From the NCBI GenBank assembly GCA_951406725.2, contig OX597815.1, positions 180,358,001 to 180,422,000 on the forward strand: a DNA stretch of 64,000 nucleotides, given 5' to 3'. The stretch's first letter is position 1; each line of letters begins with the position of its first letter. This stretch comes from Octopus vulgaris. Its lineage: Eukaryota. Positions 2,890-62,742 of this stretch are shown piece after piece. A model generated the notes under the pieces. It had not been told where the DNA came from and did no database searches. It worked only from the letters and a program-made list of their open reading frames with translations. Made by a program: the position numbers and the translations under genes.

Positions 2890-5660
2890 ACTCATGTATA
2901 TCCGTAGGACAATGAAGCAAGACTCGTCTACACAAGGCATTGAATATACTGGATTATGCAATACAACGACCCAGAAAACAGAAAATAAAAGAATGGCAAA
3001 TATGGAAATAATCAAGGAAACACTTGAAAACAACAAAAATCTTAAAACAAAACTAAGCAAAAGATGTCTATGGGACATAACTCAATAATTAGCCTAAATG
3101 ACAAAGATTGGAAACAACTTACAGAAGATGTACAAATATTAGAAAGAATCAAAGACTTCTACGGAAACCTCATTTAATCTAACAAAGAAGTTTCTTTAAC
3201 AGTAAAGGTCCCTGACATCTTGGAAGCAGAAATTAGAAGTGTTATAAAGGAAATGAGAAACAATAAAACTGCAGGTCCAGATGGGATTGAAATAGACATT
3301 ATTAAAGTGCTTGGACCAAGCACAGAGAAGAAACCAGCTAAACTCAATGCAAAATGCCTACACGAACTCAGGATACTGGTTATGTGGAAAGGTTCCCAAC
3401 TGATCCTTCTTTAGGAAAAAGGGATGCCAAAATTTTAAAGAACTTCAGACCAATCAGTCTACTATCATACATCATCTAAAAATTGATTTGAGAGAAAGCT
3501 GGATGAGAACACAAGAACAGAACAGGGAGGCTTCAGGAGAAACTACAGATGCTGTAAACCAAGTGAAGGGAAAATACCAGACTTACAACATACCATTATG
3601 CTTAATATTTGAAGAGTTTGAAAAAGCTTTTGATTCCATGGAAATCGATAATATACTAAGAGCACTAGAGGAAAAAGAAATCAAAGGAGACGGCGTGGAG
3701 TTTACAGAGAATTAGTAGACCAACTGTAGAACTAAAGCAACTATAAACAACAAAATGATTGATATCAAAATTGGGAAATGAGTTAGACAAAGAGACAACC
3801 ATATCACCCAAACTATTCACATCTGTTTTAGAAAAGGATTTTAAGAACTTGTATTGGTCAGATAAAGGAATAAATATAAATGGATGTATACTAAATCATC
3901 TCAGATTTTCTGATGATATTGTACTCAGTTCCAGCAGCATTAAAGGGTCGACAGAAATGCTCAGAGAATTAAAAGAAGAAAGCGAAAAATGTGGACTCGG
4001 AACTAATATTAGTAAAATGAGTCTAGTGAATTCATTGTTATGGTTGATGCCAGTACTGCTTGACTGGCTTCCGTGCTAGTGGCACATTAAAAGCACCATT
4101 CGAGTGTAGGTCGTTGCCAGTGCCTGAATGGCTCCTGTGCCGGTGGCATGTTAAAAATACCTGTCGAATGAAGGTTGTTGCCAGTGCCACCTGACTAGCT
4201 CCCGTGCCTGTGGCATGTTAAAAGCACGATTCGAGTGTAGGGCGTTGCCAGTGCCGCCTGAATGGCTCCTGTGTCGGTGGCATGTTAAAAGCACCATTTG
4301 AGTGTAGGGCGTTGCCAGTGCCGCCTGAATGGCTCCTGTGTCGGTGGCATGTTAAAAGCCCCATTTGAGCATAGGTCGTTGCCAGTGCTGCCTGACTGGC
4401 TCCTGTGCAGGTGGCATGTTAAAAGCACCAGTTGAGTGTAGGTCAATGCCAGTACCGCCTGACTGGCCTTCATGCTGGCGGCACATAAAAAAGCACCCAC
4501 TACACTCTTGGAGTGGTTGGCATTAGGAAGGGCATCCAGCAGTAGAAATCTTGCAAGTCCTCAATCAAACCGTCAAACCCATGCCAGCATGGAAAACAGA
4601 CATTAAACGACGAGGATGATGATGAAGATAATCTCCAACTGTCTAATCACAGCTGGAAATGTAGTAATGGATGTTGAAATAGTTGAACATGTCAACCAAT
4701 ACACTCATTTCAGACAAATTATCTGCTTAACTCTTTCGTTACTGTATTTATTTTGAGATGCTCTGTGTTTCTTTCAATTACTATATTTGGGCAGATGTAT
4801 TTTAGAACCAGTTGGAAGGGTGTAGATTGAAGGAGATTTAGGCTATTATTTCTAACATATAAAGCGACCACATTGATGTCTCCTTCTCGCATGTCTTCTG
4901 CTGATTATTTTTCTTCTTAACCCTTTTGTTACCATATTTCTGTTGAGATGCTTTGTGTTTCTTTCAACTAATTTTAAATATAACAAAGAATTTAATAAAA
5001 TAACTTAGTTATCATTCAGCTAGTGTTAAGAACATAAATTGTGACTACGGTTTGGTGGAAGATTTTAATTCAAAACTTATGGAAACAAGACATTTGTACT
5101 CAGAGCCAGAGCTGGATTCAGCTGGGTTGGTAATGAAAGGGTTAAAAGGATAAAAATCAGACCAAAGGAATTGAATGACGAATGCAGTTAGGATGAGCAT
5201 CCTTTGGTAAACTGATTCACATCATGAGTGGTGTGCCTAAAAGGAAAGGTCTTCAACCAGTGTTAGCTGAGCAGTATTATGTATGCATGAGAAACATGGA
5301 CTACCATCAAGGGCATTGAAAATATATTAAGATTAAAACAAAGAGTCATGGAAAGGAGAGTGCTAAAGATGAAGAAAATGGATAAGAATGGTAATAAGTT
5401 TAACGGATATTATCCAGAAAATAAAAATGCTGAAGTGGTCTTTCACAAGACATGTTTAGAAGACAGGATAATGGATGGAATAGCAAACTGATGGAGTGGA
5501 CACCATGTACAGAGGAAAGAAGGAAGGTAAGATTGTGGAGGACTTGGAATGAAGACTTTGTTCAATTCCTCAGCACCCAAACATGGATAAAGAAAATATT
5601 AGGCCATGGTTGGTGGAGGGAACACACTGAGGCCTTCGTCCAGCAGGAGACTGAACACGT
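2890..5660 (+). mobile_element. Decayed RTE-clade LINE ORF2 (RT to C-terminus), interrupted by an RTE-tail repeat and a piggyBac-type MITE
   Basis: Motifs MRNNKTAGPDGI, NFRPISLL, FEEFEKAFDS, ISPKLF, HLRFSDDIV and WREHTEAFVQQ occur in order across broken frames. Insertions lie at ~4045-4625 and ~4725-5145. Confidence 0.88.
4921..5141. mobile_element. piggyBac-type MITE
   Basis: TTAA at 4917-4920 and 5142-5145 flanks the TIR-like ends CCCTTTTGTTACC...GGTAATGAAAGGG. A partial copy lies at ~4725-4790. Confidence 0.75.
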
Positions 5661-8499: not shown

Positions 8500-8855
8500 A
8501 GGAGTGGCTGTGTGGTAAGTAGCTTGCTTACCAACCACATGGCTACAGGTTCAATCCCACTTCGTGGCACTTGGGCAAGTGTCTTCTACTATATCCTCAG
8601 GCCGACCAAAGCCTTGTGAGTGGATTTGGTAGACGGAAACTGAAAGAAGCCTGTCATATGTGTGTGTGTGTTTGTATGTCTGTGATTGTCTCCCCAACAT
8701 CGCTTGATAACCGATATTGGTGTGTTTACGTCCCGTAAGCTAGCAGTTTGGCAAAAGAGACTGATAGAATAAGTACTTAGTTTGGGGTCGATTTGCTTGA
8801 CTAAAGGCGGTGCTCCAGCATGGCTGCAGTCAAATGGCTGAAACAAAGAAAAGAA
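8500..8855 (+). mobile_element. SINE family A (tRNA-like head, internal TA/TG microsatellite), representative copy
   Basis: Head GGCTGTGTGGTAAGTAGCTTGC...GGTTCAATCCC with A/B-box-like motifs, followed by a conserved 3' half ending GAAACAA. Other full or partial copies lie at ~1-325(-), 520-660, 688-1165, 26808-27226, 31500-31875(-), 32155-32558(-), 33018-33165, 34150-34350, 38622-39006, 39100-39320, 41240-41825, 48590-48745(-), 54090-54462(-), 59525-59850 and 63060-63300. Confidence 0.85.
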
Positions 8856-10517: not shown

Positions 10518-13080
10518 TAGTGCCGGTCAATTTGCCGTCATTTAATTTGTCCCCCAGTCAATTCATCATTGGTCAATTTGTTGTCAGTCAATTCGCTGCG
10601 ATCACAGGAAAATGGAAGAACGAATATCCAAATAAAAACCATTTATTTTCATGTTTGCTGTATTACATATTCATTTTTTAAATTAAAATTTAAGATGGTG
10701 TGCAATTGCTTTTAGTAAAATAATTTTTGTCTTGGATCATATTTTTCCATGACATTTTTTATATGCAGATTCATGTCTCTATATTTCTTCTGGCTTGGTT
10801 CTTCTTGCTTAAACTTCTGCAATTTGATACTGGCAAACCTTTCCGCACATTTAATCACATCAATAAGTTTCCAAATATTTGGATGACTATTATTTGCTGT
10901 GTTTTTTAGCATGCTGTGATAGGTTTCTAAACTATTTGTGGTACAAGCAATTCCTATTATTCATCGATCCCAAACATTCCATATAGGTAATAGAAATGGA
11001 GGTTCAAGGCATCGCCTCCTCTGTCCACTTCCTCTGGGTGGTCATCATCATCATTGTTTAACGTCCGCTTTCCATGCTGGCATGGGTTGGACGGTTTGAC
11101 TGAAGACTGGCAAGCTGGGAGGCTGCACCAGGCTCCAATGTGGTCTGGCAAATTTTCTACAGCTGGATACCCTTCCTAATGCCAACCATTCCGAGAGTGT
11201 AGTGAGTGCTTTATAAATTCCACTGGCACGAGGGCCACTCAGGCGGTTTTGGCAATGACCACGCTCAAGTGGTGTTTTTTACGTGCCATCTGCACGGGAG
11301 GGGGGAAATATCTTCATCATCTACAAGTTGTTCATATCCATCTACATCATCATCAACCAGCAAGAAGGCAAGGGAAACAAAACACTACATTTTTAGACTG
11401 AAACTGTCATTTTTGTGATATCTGCATTTTAGTCCTTCTTGCACAACATGCTTGTGCACATTTTGTCCTAAATGAAACAAGCAGTTTGCCAAATTCGACC
11501 CAGGAAACATCATCATCATCATTACTTAACATCTGCTTTCCATGCTAGCATGGGTTGGACGATTGACTGAGGGCTGGTGAACCTGATGGCTGCACCAGGC
11601 TTCTACGTGTCACCAGCATGGGGCCAGTCAGGCGGCCCTGGCAATGACCTCACTCAAATCTTTTACACATGCCACTGGCACAGGTGCCAGTAAGGCGATG
11701 CTGGTAATGATCATGCTCGAATGGTGTCTTTTATGTGCCACTGGCACAGGTGCCAGTAAGGTGATCCTGGTAACGATCAAGCTCGAATGGTGTCTTTTAT
11801 GTGCCACCGGCACAGGTGCCAGTAAGGTGATGCTGGTAACGATCAAGCTCGAATGGTGTCTTTTATGTGCCACCGGCACAGGTGCCAGTAAGGTGATGCT
11901 GGTAACGATCAAGCTCGAATGGTGTCTTTTACATTCCACCGGCACGGAGGCCAGATAGCCGCTCTGACAGTGATCATGCTCGGATGGTGCTCTTAATACC
12001 CTACTTGCACGGGGCTCCCATTACGGGCCGCTTTTTCGAAATCCATAATTATATTATCAGGTCCCTCATTCTACAGTAATTCATTAATTTTGACAAAAAG
12101 TCTACTATATTTGTCTTGACTTTTGTCAGAGAGCAATGCGAATAATCATGGGCATTAAAATTATCTTTTTGAATGTGAAGTATATATAACTGAAAAAATA
12201 TACTAGAGCAGCACTCAAATGTTCCATCTGCCACCCTGTTCTTGTGTTGTTTTAACTGTCGAAGTACTTCATCACTTGCAAATATTGGTATTCATTTTGA
12301 ATCTTCCACCCTGCTGTCATACTGTAAAAACGTTTCATCATCGTCAAGGTAGGAGTATTCACTTGGAATGGAAAACCCAACATTTATAAGTGGGGTGGCA
12401 TGACAGTTGGAATCAGCTTGCTTCCAACTTCTTAATATTCCTATTAAGCTGTGCAAACAGAGGCATTTGCGACAATGTACAGTCGTTTAAATTCTGAACT
12501 GTGTTAGCAATAACTGAGCGAGGGGCATCACAAGATGAACTAAACCTTTCTTTAATATTTGAAACTATTATTCTTGCATTTACCTCTGCAGCTGATGGAG
12601 TGTGTTTATGGATCCCAATCTTCTTAAGCTCTTTATAATATTCATCTGTATGAAATCTCGCTTTGCACACATGATTTTCGCACCTCCAGTATATCTTCAA
12701 CCCATCTGCATTCTGCTTATTTTTTGTGTATATATAATTTTCTTGATCGACCACTTTGATTTTTCCTTTCTCTGAAGTTATGATTTTGCAGGTAGTCATG
12801 TTGATGGGTTGGCATATTGAATAAATTTAATTTGATTTACTTGAAAATCTGTGTTCATAAACTGTTCAGCACAGATACTTGAGAGAGAGAGGTGGGGTTA
12901 AAGAAAGGAGAAAAAAATATCTAAAACTGTCCAACCACAATTTTAATTCTGAAGTGATTGTTCTAAACTTTCCCTCGAAAATCACATTTAAGAGTATTTT
13001 GGGACAAATTGGTCAGCGATGAATTGACCGGGGACAAATTAACTGATGATGAAATAACTGGGGTCGAATTGTCCTAACAG
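10518..13080 (-). mobile_element. Full-span decayed Mutator-like (MULE) transposon with FLYWCH zinc finger
   Basis: ORF 12413-12799 contains FLYWCH (YIY...YWRC-x4-CKAR...H-x-H). Downstream are ADGTFE...FFQLYILH (12234 onward), CLFHLGQNV (~11460-11490) and TTNSLETYH..HPNIWKLI (~10860-10945). Both ends are made of short GTCAATT subrepeats in inverted orientation. The 9-bp TSD CTTCTCAAG lies at 10509-10517 and 13081-13089. Confidence 0.9.
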
Positions 13081-15265
13081 CTTCTCAAGTGCAGCATATT
13101 GCCAAAGGTCTCAGTCATTTGTCATTGCCTTCATGAGGCCCAACACTCAAAAGGTGCTTTTTACATGCTACCAGCATGGATGCCAGTTACGTGACACCAG
13201 CATTGGCTACATTGCCTCCGCGAGGCCCAACACTTGTAAAGGTGATTTTTATGTGCCACCAGCATCAGCTACACTGCCTCCATGAAGCCCAACACTTGTA
13301 AGATTATTTTTATGTGCCACCAGCACAGGTGCCAGTTATGTGATACCGACAATGGCCACAACTGTGATTTCACTTGGCTTGATGTCTTCTCAGGCATAGC
13401 CACATCACTAAAGGGCTCAGTTTCTTGATATTGCCTCCATGAGACCCAACATTTGAAAATCATGCTTCACCACTTTGTCCCATGTCTTCCTGAGTCTCCC
13501 TCTTTCACAGCTTCCTTCCATCGATAGAGATTGGCACTTCTTCACACAGCTGTCCATAGTGTCATATACATCACATGATCATACCGGTGTAGTCACCTCT
13601 CTCGCACACCACATCTGATACCTCTTATGTTCAACTTTTCTCTCAGGGCACTTACACTCTGTTGCACGTGCACACCCACACTGCACATCCAGCGAAGCAT
13701 ACTGGCTTCATTTCTTACAAGCCTATGCATGCCCTCAACAGTCACAGCCTATGTCTCACTGCTGTGTAGCATGGTTGTTTGCACACTGGCATCGTACAGT
13801 CTATCATTCACCCTGAAGGAAATGGCTTTTATTAGCAACAGAAGTAGGAGCTCTCTGAACTTTGCCCAGCCTATTTTTATTCTAACAGCTATGCTCTCAG
13901 AGCATCCTCCTCCACTACTGACTTGGTCACTTCTAGTTTGCTCCCTTGGCATTTGATAGAATCTATTTTCTGTACATTTTTAGTGTTAATTATACCTGTG
14001 CACCTTCCACACACAAAATCTAGTTTCCCTGCTAACCTTCCTCTGATATTACTGCACCTCTTATGTGTCCATAGCTTACACCAAGTACATCTTATGGAAT
14101 TTTTACTGATGCCTTTCCTACAGATTGAGCAAGGCCATCTACCTGAACAGATTTATGATTTGTCTACTTTCCTACTTACTAAGACTTTAGTTCTTGCTAG
14201 GTTTACTCTAAGGCCCTTCAATTCTAGACCTTGCTTCCACACCTGAAACTTCTCTAGTTCTGGTAGTGATTCAGTTATAAGAACAAGGTCATCAGAATAG
14301 AGGTGCTCCCAGGAGCAGCCTGTCTTAAATTCCTCTGTTGTTGCCTGGAGAACTATTATGAACTAGACGGGGCTGAGGACTGATCCGTGGTGAACCTCTA
14401 CTTGTACTCTGAATTCTTCACTATACACATTACCTTACTGACAGTATCCTTGTACATGGCTTGTACAGCTCTCACCAACCACTCATCTATCCCTAGTTTC
14501 TGCATTGACCACCAGATACAGGTTTGGGGAATCTTGACAAAGGCTTTCTCCAAGTCATTAAAAGCCAAATACAGAGATTTATCTTTGGCTATGTATTTCT
14601 CCTGCAGCTGCCTTACCAGAGATGTAGCGTCAGTGATGCTTTTCCTTGGCACAAAACCAAATTGCATCTCGCCTAGACTAACTCTCTCCCTAATTACTTG
14701 GGCTATGACTCTCTCCAGGACATTTATCACCTGATCCAACAATTTGATACCACTGGAATTATTTCTATCTGAGGCATCATGGTTACCTTTGCAGCAATTG
14801 ATTATGGTACTGCTACACCAGTCATTGGGTACCACCTGGTTAACTATACAGGTGACTAGACCATAACCTACACCGCCATATTTTAAGCATCTCAGCTTTC
14901 TCTCTCTTCATCATCATCATCATCATCATTTAACATCCGCTTTCCATGCTAGCAAGGGTTGGACGGTTCAACTGGGGTCTGGGAAGCCAGAAGGCTGCAC
15001 CAGGCCCAGTCTGATCTGGCAGTGTTTCTACAGCTGGATGCCCTTCCTAACTCCAACCACTTCGTGAGTGTAGTGGGTGCTTTTTATGTGCCAGACGAGG
15101 CTGGCAACGGCCACGATCGGATAGTGCTTTTTACGTGCCACTGGCACGGAGGCCAGTCGGGGCTTAATTGCTTTATCTACCAAGGTACTGTCGATTTGGT
15201 TAACTGGTCCCTCAGTTGGGTCAACATTTGGCAGACCCTTCTCCCATTCATTCTCTTCATTTGGC
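13081..15265 (-). mobile_element. 5'-truncated RTE LINE ORF2 whose 3' UTR continues at 10270-10517
   Basis: Motifs EGPVNQIDSTLVDKAIK, AEMLKYGG, MQFGFVP, FNDLEKAF, HLYSDDLVL, a C4HC3 finger, and GRLRKTWDKVVKHD occur in order. The element is split from its (GAT)n tail by the MULE. Confidence 0.9.
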
Positions 15266-15621: not shown

Positions 15622-16110
15622 ATCATCATCATCATCATCATCGTTTAACGTCCGTTTTCCGCGCTAGCACGGGTTGGACGGTTTCGACCGGGGTCTGGGG
15701 AGCCAGGGGCTGCCCCAGGCTCCAGTCTGGTCTGGCAGTGTTTCTACAGCTGGATGCCCTTCCTAACGCCAACCACTCCGCGAGTGTAGTGGGTGCTTTT
15801 TACGTGCCACCTGCACAGGTGCCAGAGGGGTCTGGCATCGGCCACGGTCGGTTGGTGCTTTATATGTGCCACCTGCACAGAAGCCAGTCGGGGCGGTGCT
15901 GGCATCGGCCACGTTCGGATGGTGCTTTTTATGTGGGGGGGGGGTGCAGAAATATAGGGGAGCACCAGTGGGGAGAGGTGTTCGGAGTGTTCATGTACTT
16001 GACTCAACAGGTCTCCTCAAGCACAGCAGGACGATCTGGGATCCGGGGTACTTTGAATGGGCAGGGGCTATGCGGAACTGATGCAGGAAGCAGCCCGGGT
16101 CTTTGCAGTC
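15622..16110 (-). mobile_element. Repeat family B (RTE LINE 3' end/UTR or RTE-tailed SINE with 60-66 bp internal repeats and a (GAT)n tail), representative copy
   Basis: Conserved core GTGGTTGGCGTTAGGAAGGGCATCCAGCTGTAGAAA...GTCCAACCCATGCTAGCATGGAAAGCGGACGTTAAACGATGATG. About 25 copies occur, e.g. 2355-2880, 4045-4625, 7140-7455, 9128-9278, 11042-11300, 11508-12010, 14908-15165, 16140-16675, 33180-33520, 36185-36420, 37800-37975, 38460-38620, 39940-40140, 40505-41090, 42415-42650, 43515-43930, 45040-45655, 46120-46445, 48235-48560, 51090-51450, 58410-58690, 60260-60650 and 61990-62560. Confidence 0.88.
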
Positions 16111-27020: not shown

Positions 27021-29578
27021 GTGTGTGTCTGTTTGTCCCTCCCCCAACATCATTTGACAACCGATGCTGGTGTGTTTATGTTCCCATAACTTAGTGGTTC
27101 GGCAAAAGAGACCGATAGAATAAGTACTAGGCTTATAAAGAATAAGTCCTGGGGTCGATTTACTTGACTAAAGGTGGTGCTCCAGCATGGCCACAGTCAA
27201 ATGGCTGAAACAAGTAAAAGAGTAAGCAAAAAAAAAAAAAAGAAAGAGATTAACGCCTGAAATTGAAATTTACTTTAAATATTATTCTTATTTCGAAAGA
27301 AAACTATATTTAAATTCAACTTTCCAGGTAGATATCCACTAGAGGAATCCGATGATGCCAATTACATTAAGAGAAATTTTTAAATTAAAAATTACTGGGG
27401 CCATAAGTGCTGAAAAATGTGACAACACCTAAGATCAATTCAATGCCAAATTTTTTTTTTTTAATACCTCATACAATAGATCTTATTAAGTGATGTGGTA
27501 CTAATCTTTCCAAAATATACCATTTATACACAGTACCATTCACAGGTGATAATCTCCTTTTTTTTTGCGCCAAGTTTTACCTCAATACTTTTTTCCTACC
27601 GAATATTTTTGCATCGCTTCTTGTCTTGATGAGGTCTATGATATGAGGTATTAAAAACAGAAAAATGTTGGTATTTAATTTAAGGTGTTACCACTTTTCT
27701 CGGTACTTTTGGCGCCAGCAGTTTTCAATTTTAAAATGTTGCTTGATATAATTAGCATCATCGGATTCCTCTAGTGAATATCTATCTGAAAAATTTTGAA
27801 ATAAGAATAATATTTGGGGTCAGATTTCGATTTCATGTGTTAATCTCCCATTTTTTTCACCAAATTTTATCTCAGTACTTTTTTCTACTGAATAATTTTG
27901 CCAATAAGTAACATGGATAGATTCCCCTCACCAAGCGCTATCGTTTAAACTAAAATAAAATATGGATTCCTTTAAAAAAAATATTTGGACTCAAAGACTA
28001 TTCCAGTTGTTACTCGCTTGTTTTTGACCTCGCATATTTCACTGAAAGCTTTTTCTACCGAAGGAACTTTCAAAATTTTCTTTTAGCTGAAAATGTGGCA
28101 TAGGGTGTGACCAATCTAAAAATGTAAACATCATCCAATTTGGTTAAAAACGGAGTTAGTGACAAAGCTTAGAAGTGGCCATGAGTGAATAAATGTTGAC
28201 CTTCAGAATATTATTCACTCATTAACATGCTGGAATGATATGTTTTGAAAAGATTGGCACCACGACACTCGTCTTGATAAGCTCTATCATATGAGGTATT
28301 AAAAAAACAGAATTTTTATTTTTGAATTTGTTTTTAGGCTTTACCACTTCTTTCAGCATATCCGGCCAGAATAGTTTTTTATTCAAAAATTGTTCTTGAT
28401 ATAATTGGCATCATCGGATTTTTCTAGTGGAGATCTATCTGAAAAGTTGAATTGAAATATAGTTTTCTTTTGAAATAATAATATTTGGTATCAGATTTTG
28501 ATCTCATGTCTTAATCTTTTTTTTTTTATGCTGGGTTTTACATCAGTACTTTTTTCTACTGAATATTTTTGCAAATAAGTAACATGGATAGATTCCTCTT
28601 GCCAAGATCTATCATATAAGCTAAAATGAAATATAGATTCCTTTAAAATAAAATATTTGGACTCAATATTTATTTCAGGTGTTACTCTCCCGTTTTTGAC
28701 CTCACATATTTTACTGAAACTTATTTTCTACCGAAGGAATTTTCAAATTTTTTTTAGCTGAAAATGTAGCTTAGGATGTGACCAATCTAAAATTGTAAAC
28801 ATCATCTAATATGGTTAAAAAGTGAGTTAGTGACAAAGCCTAGAATTGGTCGTGAGTAAGTAAATGTTGACCTTAAGAATATTCATGCATTACCGTATTT
28901 GAATGATATTATTTGGAAAAATTAACACCACAACTCTTGTGTTGATGAATTCTATCATATAAGGTAGTAAAAAAAAAATAGATTTTTAGGTTTTGAATTT
29001 GAATTTAGGTGTTAATCTCTTTTTTCAGAACATTTGGCGCTGGTATTTTTTTATTTAAAATTGTTTCTTGATATCATTGGCATCATTGGATTCCTCTAGT
29101 GGCAATCTATTTGAAAAGTGGAATTTAAATATAGTTTTCTTTTGAAATAAGAAGAATATTTGGAGTCAAATTTCGATTTCAGGTGTTAATCTCCTTCTTT
29201 CTTCCACTGGGTTTTACCTCAGTACTTCTTTTCTACTGAATATTTTTGCAAATAAGTAACGTGGATAGATTCCTCATGCCAAGATCTATCATATAAGCTA
29301 AAATAAAATAAGTGACTCCAAATCTTTTTCAGGTGTTACTCTCCCTATTTTGACATCACATATTTTATTGAAACTTATGTTCTACTGAAGCAAGTTTTAA
29401 ATTTTGGCGTTGAAGATATAGCTTTGGATATGACTGATTTAAAAAGGTAAACATCATCTAATTTCAATTCTACATTTAAGAGATGAGAAATTATGTACAA
29501 TATTTACATTTGACAGATATTTATCCTCATCTTATTTCAAACCTGGGTTCTCATTCCTAAGGTATCATTCCTAAGGTA

Positions 29579-29634
<56 letters not shown>

Positions 29635-29970
29635 GCCATGGATATATGGTGTAGTAGTTAAGAGCATGGGCTACTAACCCCAAGATTCCAAGTTCGATTC
29701 CAGGCAGTGACCTGAATAATAATAACATTGAAAAATATCTGAGGAATGAGAACCCAGGTTTGAAATTTTCCCAAGACACCTGATGAAGGCTGGAGGGTAT
29801 ATCAGCCGAAACAGTGTGATAACAACAAACAAGATGAGGACAAATATCGGTCAAATGTAAATAATATCTAATTTTGTTAAAAACTGGGTTAGTGACAAAG
29901 CCTAGAATTGGTTGTGAATGAGTAAATTTTGACCTTGAGAATTTTTTGTTCTCACATGGTAGTGTGTGAA
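21960..29970. repeat. Complex AT-rich satellite, ~630-670 bp unit, about 10 diverged copies in alternating orientation blocks
   Basis: The anchor GAGTTAGTGACAAAGCCTAGAA occurs at ~21975, 22562, 23193, 24102, 25265, 28153, 28824 and 29886 (forward) and at ~24740 and ~26555 (reverse). The 28153 to 28824 spacing is 671 bp. Confidence 0.9.
29465..29865 (+). mobile_element. Non-autonomous element with tRNA-like head, hammerhead motif and inverted repeats
   Basis: Interrupts a satellite unit, with the 9-bp duplication ATCTAATTT at 29456-29464 and 29866-29874. It contains (ATT)n, a tRNA-like segment at 29640-29713, CTGATGA-a-GGCTG..CAGCC-GAAAC at 29780-29812, and the inverted pairs 29501-29537/29827-29862 and 29535-29565/29735-29765. 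Confidence 0.75.
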
Positions 29971-36424: not shown

Positions 36425-37582
36425 CATGGTATGAGCATGGCATGAACATGAGGTTAGCATGAGTGTGGGCTGAGCATAGTATGAGCTTGGCATGAGCATG
36501 AGCTGAGCATAGTATGAGCTTGGCATGAGCGTGAGCTGAGCATAGTATGAGCTTGGCATGAGCGTGAGGTTGGTATGAATATGGTATGAACATGAGCTTA
36601 GCATGGTATGAGCTTGGCATGAGTGTGAGCTGAGCATAGTATGAGCTTGGCATGAGCGTGAGGTTGGTATGAATATGGTATGAACATGAGCTTAGCATGA
36701 GCATGAGCTTGGCATGAGCATGAGCTTGGCATGAGCATGAGCTGAGCATAGTATGAGCTTGGCATGAGCGTGAGCTGAGCATAGTATGAGCTTGGCATGA
36801 GCGTGAGGTTGGTATGAATATGGTATGAACATGAGCTTAGCATGGTATGAGCGTGAGCTGAGCATAGTATGAGCTTGGCATGAGCGTGAGGTTGGTATGA
36901 ATATGGTATGAACATGAGCTTAGCATGGTATGAGCTTGGCATGAGCGTGAGCTGAGCATAGTATGAGCTTGGCATGAGCGTAAGGTTGGTATGAATATGG
37001 TATGAACATGAGCTTAGCATGGTATGAGCTTGGCATGAGCGTGAGCTGAGCATAGTATGAGCTTGAGGTTGGTATGAATATGGTATGAACATGAGCTTAG
37101 CATGGTATGAGCTTGGCATGAGCGTGAGCTGAGCATAGTATGAGCTTGAGGTTGGTATGAATATGGTATGAATATGAGCTTAGCATGTTATGAGCTTGGC
37201 ATGAGTGTGAGCTGAGCATAGTATGAGCTTGGCATGAGCGTGAGGTTGGTATGAATATGGTATGAACATGAGCTTAGCATGGTATGAGCTTGGCATGAGC
37301 GTGAGCTGAGCATAGTATGAGCTTGGCATGAGCGTGAGGTTGGTATGAATATGGTATGAACATGAGCTTAGCATGGTATGAGCTTGGCATGAGCGTGAGC
37401 TGAGCATAGTATGAGCTTGGCATGAGCATGGTATGAACATGAGTTTAGCATGGTATGAGCTTGGCGTGAGCTGAGCATGGTATGAGCTTGGCGTGAGCTG
37501 AGCATAGTATGAGCTTGGCATGAGCGTGAGGTTGGTATGAATATGGTATGAACATGAGCTTAGCATGAGATGAGCATAAGCT
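36425..37582. repeat. Higher-order minisatellite built from GCATGAGCTT/GGTATGA-like short motifs
   Basis: Alternating blocks GAGCTTGGCATGAGCGTGAGCTGAGCATAGTAT (33 bp) and GAGCTTGGCATGAGCGTGAGGTTGGTATGAATATGGTATGAACATGAGCTTAGCATGGTAT (~61 bp). Confidence 0.93.
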
Positions 37583-37587
37583 TAGCC

Positions 37588-37786
37588 TGAAGAAAATTCT
37601 AACTGGGCCCCACCTGCAAGGTCATGCGCTGCTTATCTTGATATGAGATAACCATGTTGCGCACATATGGTTGTGATGCATGTGCCTGGTGTACCCTTAT
37701 CAGACTGGTAGTCATGGTGGTTATACTGGGTTTCGTATATTTTACCGCAATGTCTCTTTGATGGCATGCACTGCTCTCTTACTCAA
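37588..37786 (-). mobile_element. Interspersed repeat family E
   Basis: Reverse complement of 56028-56190 (GAGTGAGAGAGCAATGCATGCCATCAAAG...GACCTTGCAGGTGGGGCCCAGTTAGAATTTTCTTC). Confidence 0.7.
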
Positions 37787-61793: not shown

Positions 61794-62742
61794 CAGGAAT
61801 GTGCTGCCTGGGTAGGCAAGGTAGGCAGTGCCTACCCTGAATAAAATAGATCAACAGTAACATTTTCCTTTTATGGCAAAATATGCACCTAATTCCATAA
61901 AATTATGAAGGTTACTCTGATTACTCAGCATAAAATGCAAAATATTTTACTTTTTGTACATTAGGTAGGTATAATTTGCCCTGGCCTTTCATCATCATCA
62001 TCATCATCATCATCGTTTAACGTCCGCTTTCCATGCTAGCATGGGTTGGACGGTTCAACTGGGGTCTGGGAAGCCCGAAGGCTGCACCAGGCCAGTCAGA
62101 TGTGGCAGTGTTTCTACAGCTGGATGCCCTTCCTAACGCCAGCCACTCCGAGAGTGTAGTGGGTGATTTTATGTGCCACCGACACAGGTGCCAGACGAGG
62201 CTGGCAGACGGCCACGCTCGGATGGTGTTTTTTATGTGCCACCGACACAGGTGCCAGACGAGGCTGGCAGACGGCCACGCTCGGATGGTGTTTTTTATGT
62301 GCCACCGACACAGGTGCCAGACGAGGCTGGCAGACGGCCACGCTCGGATGGTGTTTTTTATGTGCCACCGACACAGGTGCCAGACGAGGCTGGCAGACGG
62401 CCACGCTCGGATGGTGTTTTTTATGTGCCACCGACACAGGTGCCAGACGAGGCTGGCAGACGGCCACGCTCGGATGGTGTTTTCTTATGTGTCACCGACA
62501 CAGGTGCTAGACGAGGCTGGCGGACGGCCACGCTCGGATGGTGTTTGTTACGTGCCCTCAGTATTTAAGCTAAGCATGATATTGCTGTAATACACGTGGT
62601 GCGTACATTCCTACAACACTGTTGTCTTTACGCGCTATAAAGGCAGAAGTAAATCAGCCTTCAACTCAATCACATGCCTGTATTCCACTCCATAAACATC
62701 ACCAACTGCCTACCTTGAGTAATTACTGACGACACATTCCTG
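61794..62742. mobile_element. hAT-like non-autonomous element containing a family B insertion
   Basis: 10-bp TIR CAGGAATGTG/CACATTCCTG, with subterminal GGTAGGCA/TGCCTACC motifs at both ends. The flanks ATATATAT/AGATATAT are only a weak TSD because the left one is in a microsatellite. Confidence 0.6.
62165..62560. repeat. Near-perfect 63-bp tandem array (~6 copies) inside a family B copy
   Basis: ATGTGCCACCGACACAGGTGCCAGACGAGG starts at 62171, 62234, 62297, 62360 and 62423, with a variant at ~62487. Confidence 0.95.

Follow-up and report, generated by a model that had tools for sequence, protein, structure and literature searches.

The window analyzed here, a 64,000-nucleotide stretch of Octopus vulgaris DNA, contains at approximately 21.9–30.0 kb a cluster of degenerate repeat units, which lie in both orientations with a period of ~670 bp and share 70–85% identity. 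One of these units carried a 401-bp insertion at positions 29465–29865, flanked by a 9-bp target-site duplication (TSD), ATCTAATTT, at 29456–29464 and 29866–29874 (+ strand). When empty host units were aligned, the TSD motif occurred as a single copy in five of five units, which continued like the right flank of the insertion. This result bore out the preliminary description of this DNA, which had proposed an approximately 400-bp insertion with a 9-bp TSD in a repeat unit. The inserted sequence has decayed and belongs to an abundant mobile-element family of octopus type. A likeness of the target site to the element's own end was also considered and left as unproven; its score was reached by 1.7% of the background and by 7% of AT-rich windows.

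The non-coding core of the insertion (29640–29865, about 226 nt) consisted, on the + strand, of a tRNA-derived head at 29640–29714, an (AAT)n linker at 29715–29729, and at 29730–29865 an end resembling the pseudo-LTR (pLTR) end of Penelope-like elements (PLEs), with a minimal type I hammerhead (29775–29820) and a putative RT-binding/initiation region. The left part of the insertion lay on the − strand. It comprised a 36-nt Penelope-type tail at 29465–29500; an inverted copy of 29827–29863, the 3' end of the element, at 29501–29537, with 92% complementarity across 37 nt; an inverted copy of 29730–29766 at 29534–29582 with a 14-bp internal duplication, fused straight onto the 3'-end piece (89% between 29534–29570 and 29730–29766); and an (AAT)17 linker at 29583–29634, longer than that of the right-hand copy. 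The left arm therefore lacked the 60 nt at 29767–29826, the part containing the hammerhead, and the joint replacing them showed a 3-nt AAA microhomology. For this insertion, the earlier reading of the left end as an inverted copy of the hammerhead flanks without the hammerhead itself was thus correct. The two arms met at 29630–29647, where a short palindrome derived from the 5' end of the element itself, now decayed, joins them head to head; it was identified from its hairpin fold and from loose ends in the family. The palindromic head corresponded to the loose-end consensus before 29644 in four of four runs (180, 164, 186, and 22 records). The tail occurred on one end only and was lacking in the right arm. 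It is family sequence and not filler: its translation ran on into the same residues of the protein match P0002, with 15 of 21 identical, and similarly in P0013 and P0019. Neither the tail nor the palindromic junction had been mentioned in the preliminary description.

The insertion or part of it was found in 22 of the 24 listed runs (13 studies), and 20 of these, with shares of 0.35–0.75, were assigned to organisms A–D. Three DNA runs contained 25,393, 24,895, and 20,232 contigs matching the insertion. No run listed as containing the insertion was labelled as RNA; run X15, the RNA origin of which is a guess, likewise consists of contigs, which carry no information on transcription, transcript ends, or cleavage.

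The tRNA-derived head and the hammerhead end

The head contained an A box (29647–29657) and a B box (29692–29700), which were correctly spaced near the 5' end and covered by family contigs in four of four runs. A tRNA-like cloverleaf had been proposed at this position. The two boxes were confirmed but the cloverleaf was not: ARAGORN reported no tRNA genes, an Rfam search gave neither a tRNA nor a hammerhead, whether at the gathering threshold or with the cutoff relaxed to E = 10, and the fold z-score was −0.82. The head is a promoter remnant and not a folding tRNA. The A+B pattern occurred at two sites in the 64 kb and at least once in 67 of 200 shuffles; taken alone, this pattern is weak. The 5' boundary of the family lay at the tRNA start, with contig depth climbing from 29638–29657 and loose ends at 29644, and a T4 run, which occurs only once inside the insertion on the + strand, was missing from the family majority, in which 29769 was C (90–97%). 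From these sequence features, we infer that the head acted as an internal Pol III promoter. The length of the following (AAT)n linker varied in the family, with AAT loose ends before 29715 and behind 29725 in four of four runs.

At the other end of the core, the contig depth of the family dropped 457- to 832-fold beyond 29865 in the three DNA runs. The hammerhead in this end was composed of stem I (29775–79 paired with 29816–20), the core CTGATGA (29780–86) with an extra base at 29787, stem II (29788–93 paired with 29802–07), GAAAC (29808–12), and the cleavage triplet (29813–15), all on the + strand. A descriptor of the core and stem II (29780–29812) matched one site in the window and gave a site in only 1 of 100 shuffles, which supported the original identification of core, stem II, and GAAAC. 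As had been suspected, the triplet was mutated in this copy: it reads AGT, which is not NUH, and stem I has only 3 bp, and the ribozyme of this copy is predicted to be dead. In the family majority of four of four runs, the letters were G at 29813 (63–79%), T at 29814 (93–98%), and T at 29819 (93–98%), and therefore GAAAC-GUU, a CG palindrome at 15.2/16.2, and a pairable 5-bp stem I were restored; the preliminary description had named a consensus GAAAC-GUH and a pairable stem I as checks. The family majority has all features that define the minimal PLE hammerhead (PMC4209133), namely the core, the extra base after A9, G10.1-C11.1, the palindromic 15.2/16.2 positions, a helix I of 4–5 bp, and an NUH triplet. 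All four non-CpG minor-letter sites in 29775–29820, two of them minor, were at free positions (N7 and loop II; p = 0.003). This family pattern suggests that the catalytic core is under constraint, and the hammerhead appears to have been constrained in the source copies. The hammerhead lacks a stem III loop, and cleavage would need a dimer or the help of a protein. The window contained one hammerhead and no head-to-tail hammerhead pair; for this reason the label "retrozyme hybrid" given to this copy was not upheld.

Family copies linking the head to the hammerhead

Co-occurrence of the tRNA head and the hammerhead in other copies had been put forward as a check, and such copies were found. Among 32 listed contig pieces, four started in the B-box region, crossed the linker, and reached or passed the hammerhead, with linker lengths unlike that of the copy at 29465–29865; one extended for 31 or more letters to either side of the middle of the linker. 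None covered the whole insertion. The joints 29694–29742, 29695–29745, and 29698–29791 likewise connected the head with the hammerhead part, and both parts adjoined the same (AAT)n linker in four of four runs. P0014 started with residues matching the frame of the head, followed by the frame of the hammerhead region. The hammerhead part was 1.7–2.4 times as deep as the head, which indicated that many hammerhead ends lack a head.

Five of the 15 listed joints (69 more exist) connected the head (29644–29646) with five distinct positions on the opposite strand, and inverted arms of varying length therefore recur in the family. The exact joint 29766–29827 was absent among these 15. Seven of them were skips, five of which crossed the cut site and had their ends at other positions. 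The lack of a hammerhead in the left arm thus appears to be specific to the copy at 29465–29865. A cluster of joint ends at 29814–29839, just 3' of the cut site, included 9 of the 15 listed joints (nominal p = 0.0003, with the range picked after inspection and the rows pre-selected); it was set aside and not used, because 5' truncation already favors short 3' pieces.

Exact-pattern scans of viral contigs and genome contigs gave no family copies. A metagenome scan gave 17 loci that had only the hammerhead pattern in common with the family: none of the 17 had an A+B box in the 400 nt upstream, none of the 15 scanned had a tRNA, and no long PLE-protein-like ORF was recognized by eye beside them. 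In 8 of the 17, an inverted copy overlapped the hammerhead region.

Copying of the element and alternative explanations

The element has the size (80–500 nt), non-coding sequence, high copy number, and TSD of a tRNA-derived SINE, with A and B boxes near the 5' end as in the definition of SINEs (PMC8969392). The combination of a tRNA-like promoter with a hammerhead end, an inverted arm, and a one-sided tail indicates that this SINE likely borrows the enzymes of a Penelope-like element and not those of a LINE. Insertions of PLEs are marked by an adjoining inverted 5'-truncated copy and a 30–40 bp tail at one end only (PMC8557442), and the copy at 29465–29865 has an inverted 5'-truncated arm and, on the left only, a family-encoded tail of 36 nt. 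This tail reaches to 86 nt beyond the cut site; for the anole PLE, subtraction of published positions places the main start of RT 85–92 nt beyond its cut site (PMC11167929). We consider it probable that the element is a Pol III-transcribed SINE with a PLE-type 3' end, mobilized in trans by the enzymes of that element. The earlier proposal of a Penelope-mobilized, Pol III-driven non-autonomous element gains support from the co-occurrence of head and hammerhead, the restored GUU and stem I, and the 36-nt tail.

In such a process, the A and B boxes would drive a Pol III RNA of roughly 230–270 nt, the 3' ~170 nt of which, captured from a PLE pseudo-LTR end, would recruit the PLE protein. Copying in trans would fall to an autonomous PLE, whose reverse transcriptase/GIY-YIG endonuclease may cut the two strands of the target at positions 9 bp apart and prime cDNA from both DNA ends. 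Two start sites on the RNA, 36 nt apart, would give one arm with the tail and the other without it; one cDNA would be full length and the other truncated, and the palindromic 5' end could be the point at which the two are linked head to head. For the anole PLE, both strands were cut and extended, and ribozyme cleavage was dispensable for insertion (PMC11167929). The template in octopus would be uncut RNA, since copies read through the cut site.

An unlikely alternative is that the insertion represents a non-autonomous PLE fragment copied by Pol II read-through, with the tRNA-like head as a passenger captured once and having no Pol III role. Such an origin would agree with a head that does not fold as a tRNA, with the approximately twofold depth of the hammerhead part, and with known non-autonomous PLE derivatives that have no Pol III promoters. 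Nevertheless, the family boundary lies exactly at the tRNA start, the A/B spacing is correct, and the majority lacks an internal T4 run, while the depth ratio is explained by 5' truncation and inverted arms.

The inverted arm might instead have arisen by twin priming, if an ordinary LINE-mobilized tRNA SINE had acquired a PLE-fragment body. We regard this as quite improbable. The one-sided, family-encoded 36-nt tail and the full head beside an inverted arm are marks of PLEs, the insertion has no poly-A end, and the hammerhead appears constrained; what speaks for a LINE is the SINE-like size with A/B boxes and TSD, and, in some copies (loose ends, P0010, and P0015), a 3' end with a repeated 9-nt unit, which resembles a LINE-type repeat tail.

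Multiplication through hammerhead-cut, possibly circular, RNA monomers released from tandem arrays, as in a retrozyme or Sm-alpha-like element, would account for a hammerhead that is intact and constrained in the family. The joint 29848–29775 (depth 1523 in run X2, strand not given) is possibly a short tandem of the hammerhead region, and a related family occurs in head-to-tail repeats of about 41 codons. Copies of the octopus element, however, begin at the tRNA head and pass through the cut site, and none of the 15 listed joints (of which 69 more exist) was a tandem joint of the 3' end to the head. The copy at 29465–29865 is a monomer with an inverted arm and shows no partial head-to-tail tandem of the pLTR kind, although go-back joints may provide such tandems elsewhere in the family. 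This explanation is very improbable. A Mutator-like MITE with a captured SINE head can be dismissed as highly improbable: Mutator-like elements produce 9-bp TSDs and the inverted arms are long, but the repeat on the left side starts only after the first 36 nt of the insertion, so that the terminal inverted repeats are not fixed, the arm length differs among copies, and the hammerhead and tail are PLE features.

For mobilization by PLE enzymes, a search was made for the autonomous partner. No long RT/GIY-YIG protein was found among the 24 protein matches, and Pfam detected neither an RT nor a GIY-YIG domain in P0014 and seven other protein matches scanned, in which the only Pfam families belonged to the host part of P0014. 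Word searches of protein records gave no partner element, and neither a LINE nor a PLE partner emerged from the protein matches. Named relatives are Octopus bimaculoides records. Of two published Octopus PLE types examined as candidate partners, neither agreed with the element: Hydra-1_Obim has another kind of hammerhead, and Naiads have none. The frame starting at ATG 29746 was considered as the start of a partner ORF. Both the family majority and P0002 keep it open across the hammerhead and tail, for which the chance probability is 0.02–0.06, and no long protein carries it; it was kept as a lead only. The share of PLEs in the O. vulgaris assembly is 6.83%. The element was not found in the supplement of PMC8557442 by a text search, which was a weak search across broken sequence lines.

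Relation to known elements and significance

The preliminary description had called the combination rarely described. That holds in part: a tRNA promoter with a hammerhead is already known from Sm-alpha of Schistosoma, whereas a tRNA SINE with a demonstrated use of Penelope machinery was not found in the literature covered, which lies outside repeat databases and the 1994 octopus SINE paper. In that paper, Ohshima and Okada reportedly described the octopus tRNA SINEs OK, OR1, and OR2, which resemble the present element in host and in having a tRNA-derived head. The family may be one of these three, although we consider it rather less likely than a separate identity. In the excerpts of PMC4824008 or PMC4758252, OR1 or OR2, respectively, is listed as a CORE-SINE with no mention of a hammerhead or a PLE link.

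According to excerpts of PMC2770079 and PMC6765202, Sm-alpha and Sj-alpha are high-copy, SINE-like elements in which a tRNA-related Pol III head is followed by a type I hammerhead, an order also present in the octopus element. The hammerhead of Sm-alpha is canonical and frees monomers from tandem transcripts, whereas that of the octopus monomer is of the minimal PLE type. The octopus element further differs in having its hammerhead 50 nt from the 3' end, in read-through of the cut site, and in the PLE-type inverted arms and tail; the same excerpts give no mobilizing partner for Sm-alpha. With endonuclease-bearing PLEs, including copies of these that are truncated or non-autonomous (Penelope/Poseidon, Neptune, Nematis; MRC1), the element shares a minimal hammerhead near the 3' end, an adjoining inverted 5'-truncated copy, a one-sided 30–40 bp tail, and an AT-rich target, but it has no RT/endonuclease ORF, and in place of the pLTR promoter it has a tRNA-derived head with A and B boxes. 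The non-LTR retrozymes of animals are similarly short and non-coding, with a type I hammerhead and a proposed dependence on PLEs. In the excerpted descriptions, they form head-to-tail tandems giving circular RNA, with no tRNA head or promoter of their own; the octopus copy is a head-to-head monomer with one hammerhead in contrast to their two or more head-to-tail units.

Penelope-like elements constitute a telomerase-related class of RT, and SINEs have been defined as parasites of LINEs. A high-copy tRNA SINE with PLE ends would extend the design of a head plus a partner's tail to a third RT class. We tentatively propose, at somewhat less than an even chance, that this octopus family, a major one, is the first clear classical SINE (a tRNA-derived Pol III head combined with the 3' end of an autonomous partner) with a Penelope-like partner, that its hammerhead, selected even though the template is uncut RNA, is a module for RT recognition or copy-number control, and that its palindromic head joins cDNAs head to head and so seeds the genome with dsRNA substrates. 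As a natural substrate of 230–270 nt in thousands of copies, the family would map the minimal cis sequence needed by the PLE protein, and it opens the origin of the inverted arms and tails and the purpose of the PLE hammerhead to testing. The element also bears on annotation, since none of the categories "SINE," "Penelope," and "MITE" of cephalopod repeat libraries fits elements of this kind cleanly. Cephalopods show extensive RNA editing; the inverted-arm copy folded into a long duplex (−138 kcal/mol, z = −10), and such duplexes are candidate substrates for this editing.

Structure of the insertion and its host repeat

The insertion at 29465–29865 was bracketed by two copies of ATCTAATTT. This motif occurred once in each of the aligned empty host units (5/5), which all continued like the right flank of the insertion; therefore, the clean 9-bp target-site duplication claimed in the preliminary description was real. 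The host was a degenerate repeat cluster at 21.9–30.0 kb with a period of ~670 bp, whose units were 70–85% identical and both direct and inverted, in agreement with the claimed ~400-bp insertion in a satellite unit.

In the right part (29640–29865, plus strand), the tRNA-derived head was followed by an (AAT)n linker and then by a hammerhead-containing end of 136 nt. On the minus strand, the left part comprised a short head remnant, (AAT)17, a copy of 29730–29766, a copy of the last 37–39 nt, and a tail of 36 further nt beyond the 3' end copy (29500–29465, minus strand), which was absent from the right copy. Between the two copied segments the left arm skipped 60 nt containing the hammerhead, which confirmed that the left end was an inverted copy of the hammerhead flanks without the hammerhead itself. 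Both 3' ends faced outward, and the whole insertion was predicted to form a long duplex of −138.2 kcal/mol, as stable in 0/100 shuffles.

Copy number and linkage of the head and the hammerhead

The element was real and of high copy number. The stretch was wholly or partly present in 22/24 listed runs from 13 studies (one run possibly being the source of the window itself), and the 20 runs with shares of 0.35–0.75 came from four organisms. Contigs aligned to 29628–29900 numbered 25,393, 24,895, and 20,232 in three DNA runs; depth over the head and hammerhead was in the millions in three DNA runs and fell 457- to 832-fold past 29865. When the 35-residue translation of 29764–29868 was searched against 1.84 billion proteins, 24 matched, and we regard these for the most part as spurious translations of further element copies; two of the 20 looked up carried an organism name, both Octopus bimaculoides, which points to an octopus as the host of the window.

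A pattern scan found both an A box and a B box in the head, a combination that on its own often arises by chance in a 64-kb sequence (67/200 shuffles). ARAGORN detected no tRNA gene, an Rfam search matched neither a tRNA nor a hammerhead, and the fold z-score of the head was −0.82. Of the tRNA-like cloverleaf proposed earlier, the boxes were thus retained, but the head is without a folding tRNA structure. The family's palindromic head (29630–29647) could fold into a hairpin with a 7-bp stem, whose four-base loop we take to be of a stable tetraloop type; it starts ~17 nt upstream of the A box, where Pol III could plausibly initiate. The loose-end consensus was this short palindromic head in 4/4 runs. 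Other B-box SINE-like heads in the window, at 8549 and 30866, carried different bodies.

The listed pieces and joints from the alignment of run contigs to the element supported the head and the hammerhead travelling together, as proposed. Four of the 32 pieces began at 29687–29700 and reached into or past the hammerhead; these differed from the window copy by 10–24 letters and in linker length, one had at least 31 letters on either side of the linker centre, and none of the 32 covered everything. Three more joints connected the B-box region with the 3' body, AAT repeats stood at loose ends on both linker sides in 4/4 runs, and no further body was present among the 24 loose-end rows listed. One protein match, P0014, opened with residues matching the window's head frame, followed by the hammerhead-region frame. 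Depth over the hammerhead part was 1.7–2.4 times that over the head, a ratio that 5' truncation and inverted arms would produce but that headless fragments of a Penelope-like element (PLE) would produce too. P0014 is XP_052825882.1, an O. bimaculoides dystrobrevin beta isoform model, in which the two frames were fused directly over ~33 N-terminal residues before an EF-hand match; this start would be either an exonised, internally deleted element copy or a gene-model artefact.

Sequence and state of the hammerhead

The claimed hammerhead core was borne out as the sole descriptor match for core and stem II in the window (match in 1/100 shuffles). The family majority letters were G at 29813 (63–79%), T at 29814 (93–98%), and T at 29819 (93–98%), which restored GAAAC-GUU, consistent with the anticipated GAAAC-GUH, with a CG palindrome replacing stem III and a pairable stem I of four Watson–Crick pairs and one GU. 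With an extra base after the core and a G-C pair opening stem II, the family-majority sequence matches the minimal PLE hammerhead in the accessible text of PMC4209133, which reports that dimers were weakly cleaved and monomers not at all. Because the window copy had lost the cleavage triplet (29813–29815), described earlier as mutated, and one stem I pair, its ribozyme is predicted to be dead. The non-CpG minor-letter sites in 29775–29820 all fell at N7 or loop II (4/4; free positions, 11/42; p=0.003), and this small test of four sites suggests constraint on the hammerhead in source copies.

In X2, one sequencing run aligned to the element, a joint 29848–29775 (strand not given) had a depth of 1523, far above other joints (68–333), and may be a 74-nt tandem with the hammerhead, which would permit dimeric cleavage. 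A related second hammerhead-end family with ~41-codon head-to-tail repeats and a different 5' part (protein matches P0001, P0003–P0008, P0012, P0017, and P0022–P0024) could depend on the same putative PLE as the element or could form a retrozyme-like array. Metagenome loci L001–L003, L007, L009–L011, and L014 were unrelated minimal-hammerhead elements with an identical stem II start, an inverted copy nearby, and no A and B box upstream.

Proposed mobilization and relation to known elements

PLE insertions, in the accessible text of PMC8557442, have an inverted 5'-truncated copy beside the 5' end and a 30–40 bp tail that is often confined to one end; the window insertion showed both marks, an adjacent inverted truncated copy and a one-end tail. 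P0002 continued beyond the 3' end with 15/21 residues identical to the left-arm translation, and P0013 and P0019 likewise read on into tail residues, which indicated that the tail is family sequence. The head led to the opposite strand in 5/15 listed joints (at 29703, 29774, 29814, 29820, and 29834); inverted arms thus recur with varying length. The inverted truncated arm and the 36-nt family tail argue that this is probably, as suggested earlier, a Penelope-mobilised non-autonomous element.

According to the available part of PMC11167929, a PLE protein cleaves and extends the two strands of the target, has two start sites bracketing the tail, prefers AT-rich DNA, and does not require hammerhead cleavage, which it aids. 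By subtraction, its main start lies 85–92 nt past the cut site; the tail end of the window element lies 86 nt past. We consider it rather likely that a short RNA would be made by Pol III from the A and B boxes, that its 3' part would be bound by a PLE protein cutting the target with a 9-bp stagger, and that two cDNAs would be primed, one per start site, one reaching the 5' end and the other truncated, before head-to-head joining in which the palindromic head may take part. The 60-nt gap would likely reflect a reverse transcriptase jump over the hammerhead at a 3-nt microhomology; similar skips with different ends occurred in other copies. The family majority had no internal T4 run. That the head is a passenger with no Pol III role is unlikely.

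No autonomous PLE partner with the same 3' end was found among the protein-search matches, including the 24 from 1.84 billion proteins; of the published candidates in the texts available, the Octopus Hydra element carries a hammerhead of another kind and Naiads carry none. SINEs are defined by LINE dependence in the accessible part of PMC8969392, which names retrozymes as a possible exception; beside the arm and tail described here, a LINE-driven SINE is quite improbable. Animal retrozymes are proposed PLE dependants arranged in tandem, and the available portions mention no tRNA head (PMC7761336, PMC7229834, bioRxiv 10.64898/2026.07.22.740005), whereas the window copy has a tRNA-derived head and is head-to-head; the suggested retrozyme hybrid was not adopted, and a retrozyme-type cycle is still less probable. 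A Mutator-like MITE is barely credible.

A tRNA-related SINE with a hammerhead is known in Schistosoma Sm-alpha (PMC2770079, PMC6765202); by the descriptions available, its ribozyme is canonical and its units tandem, whereas the octopus hammerhead is of the minimal PLE type, and membership was not adopted. SINE and Penelope classes are listed for octopus repeats with no link between them in the accessible texts (PMC13282606, PMC8967140, PMC6962438). Full-text literature gave no account, for octopus or any other organism, of a tRNA SINE that carries PLE ends, most subscription papers and repeat databases lying outside this search; the family sequence may well be catalogued already, for example in the 1994 octopus SINE paper or in such databases. 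In its predicted working the element is likely SINE-like at the 5' end and PLE-like at the 3' end, and we file it among non-autonomous PLE dependants as a new variant. The preliminary description is supported, with corrections.

Elsewhere in the window, a nested tandem array (36447–37590) had periods of 11, 33, 83, and 94 bp. Fragments at 14398–14907 and 12413–12826 (both minus strand) matched Pfam RVT_1 and FLYWCH, respectively, and represent a broken LINE-type reverse transcriptase and, likely, a Mutator-like transposase piece. Tandem units of 62–67 bp occurred in a very abundant interspersed repeat at 4048–4467, 11670–11945, 15792–15935, and 62167–62556.
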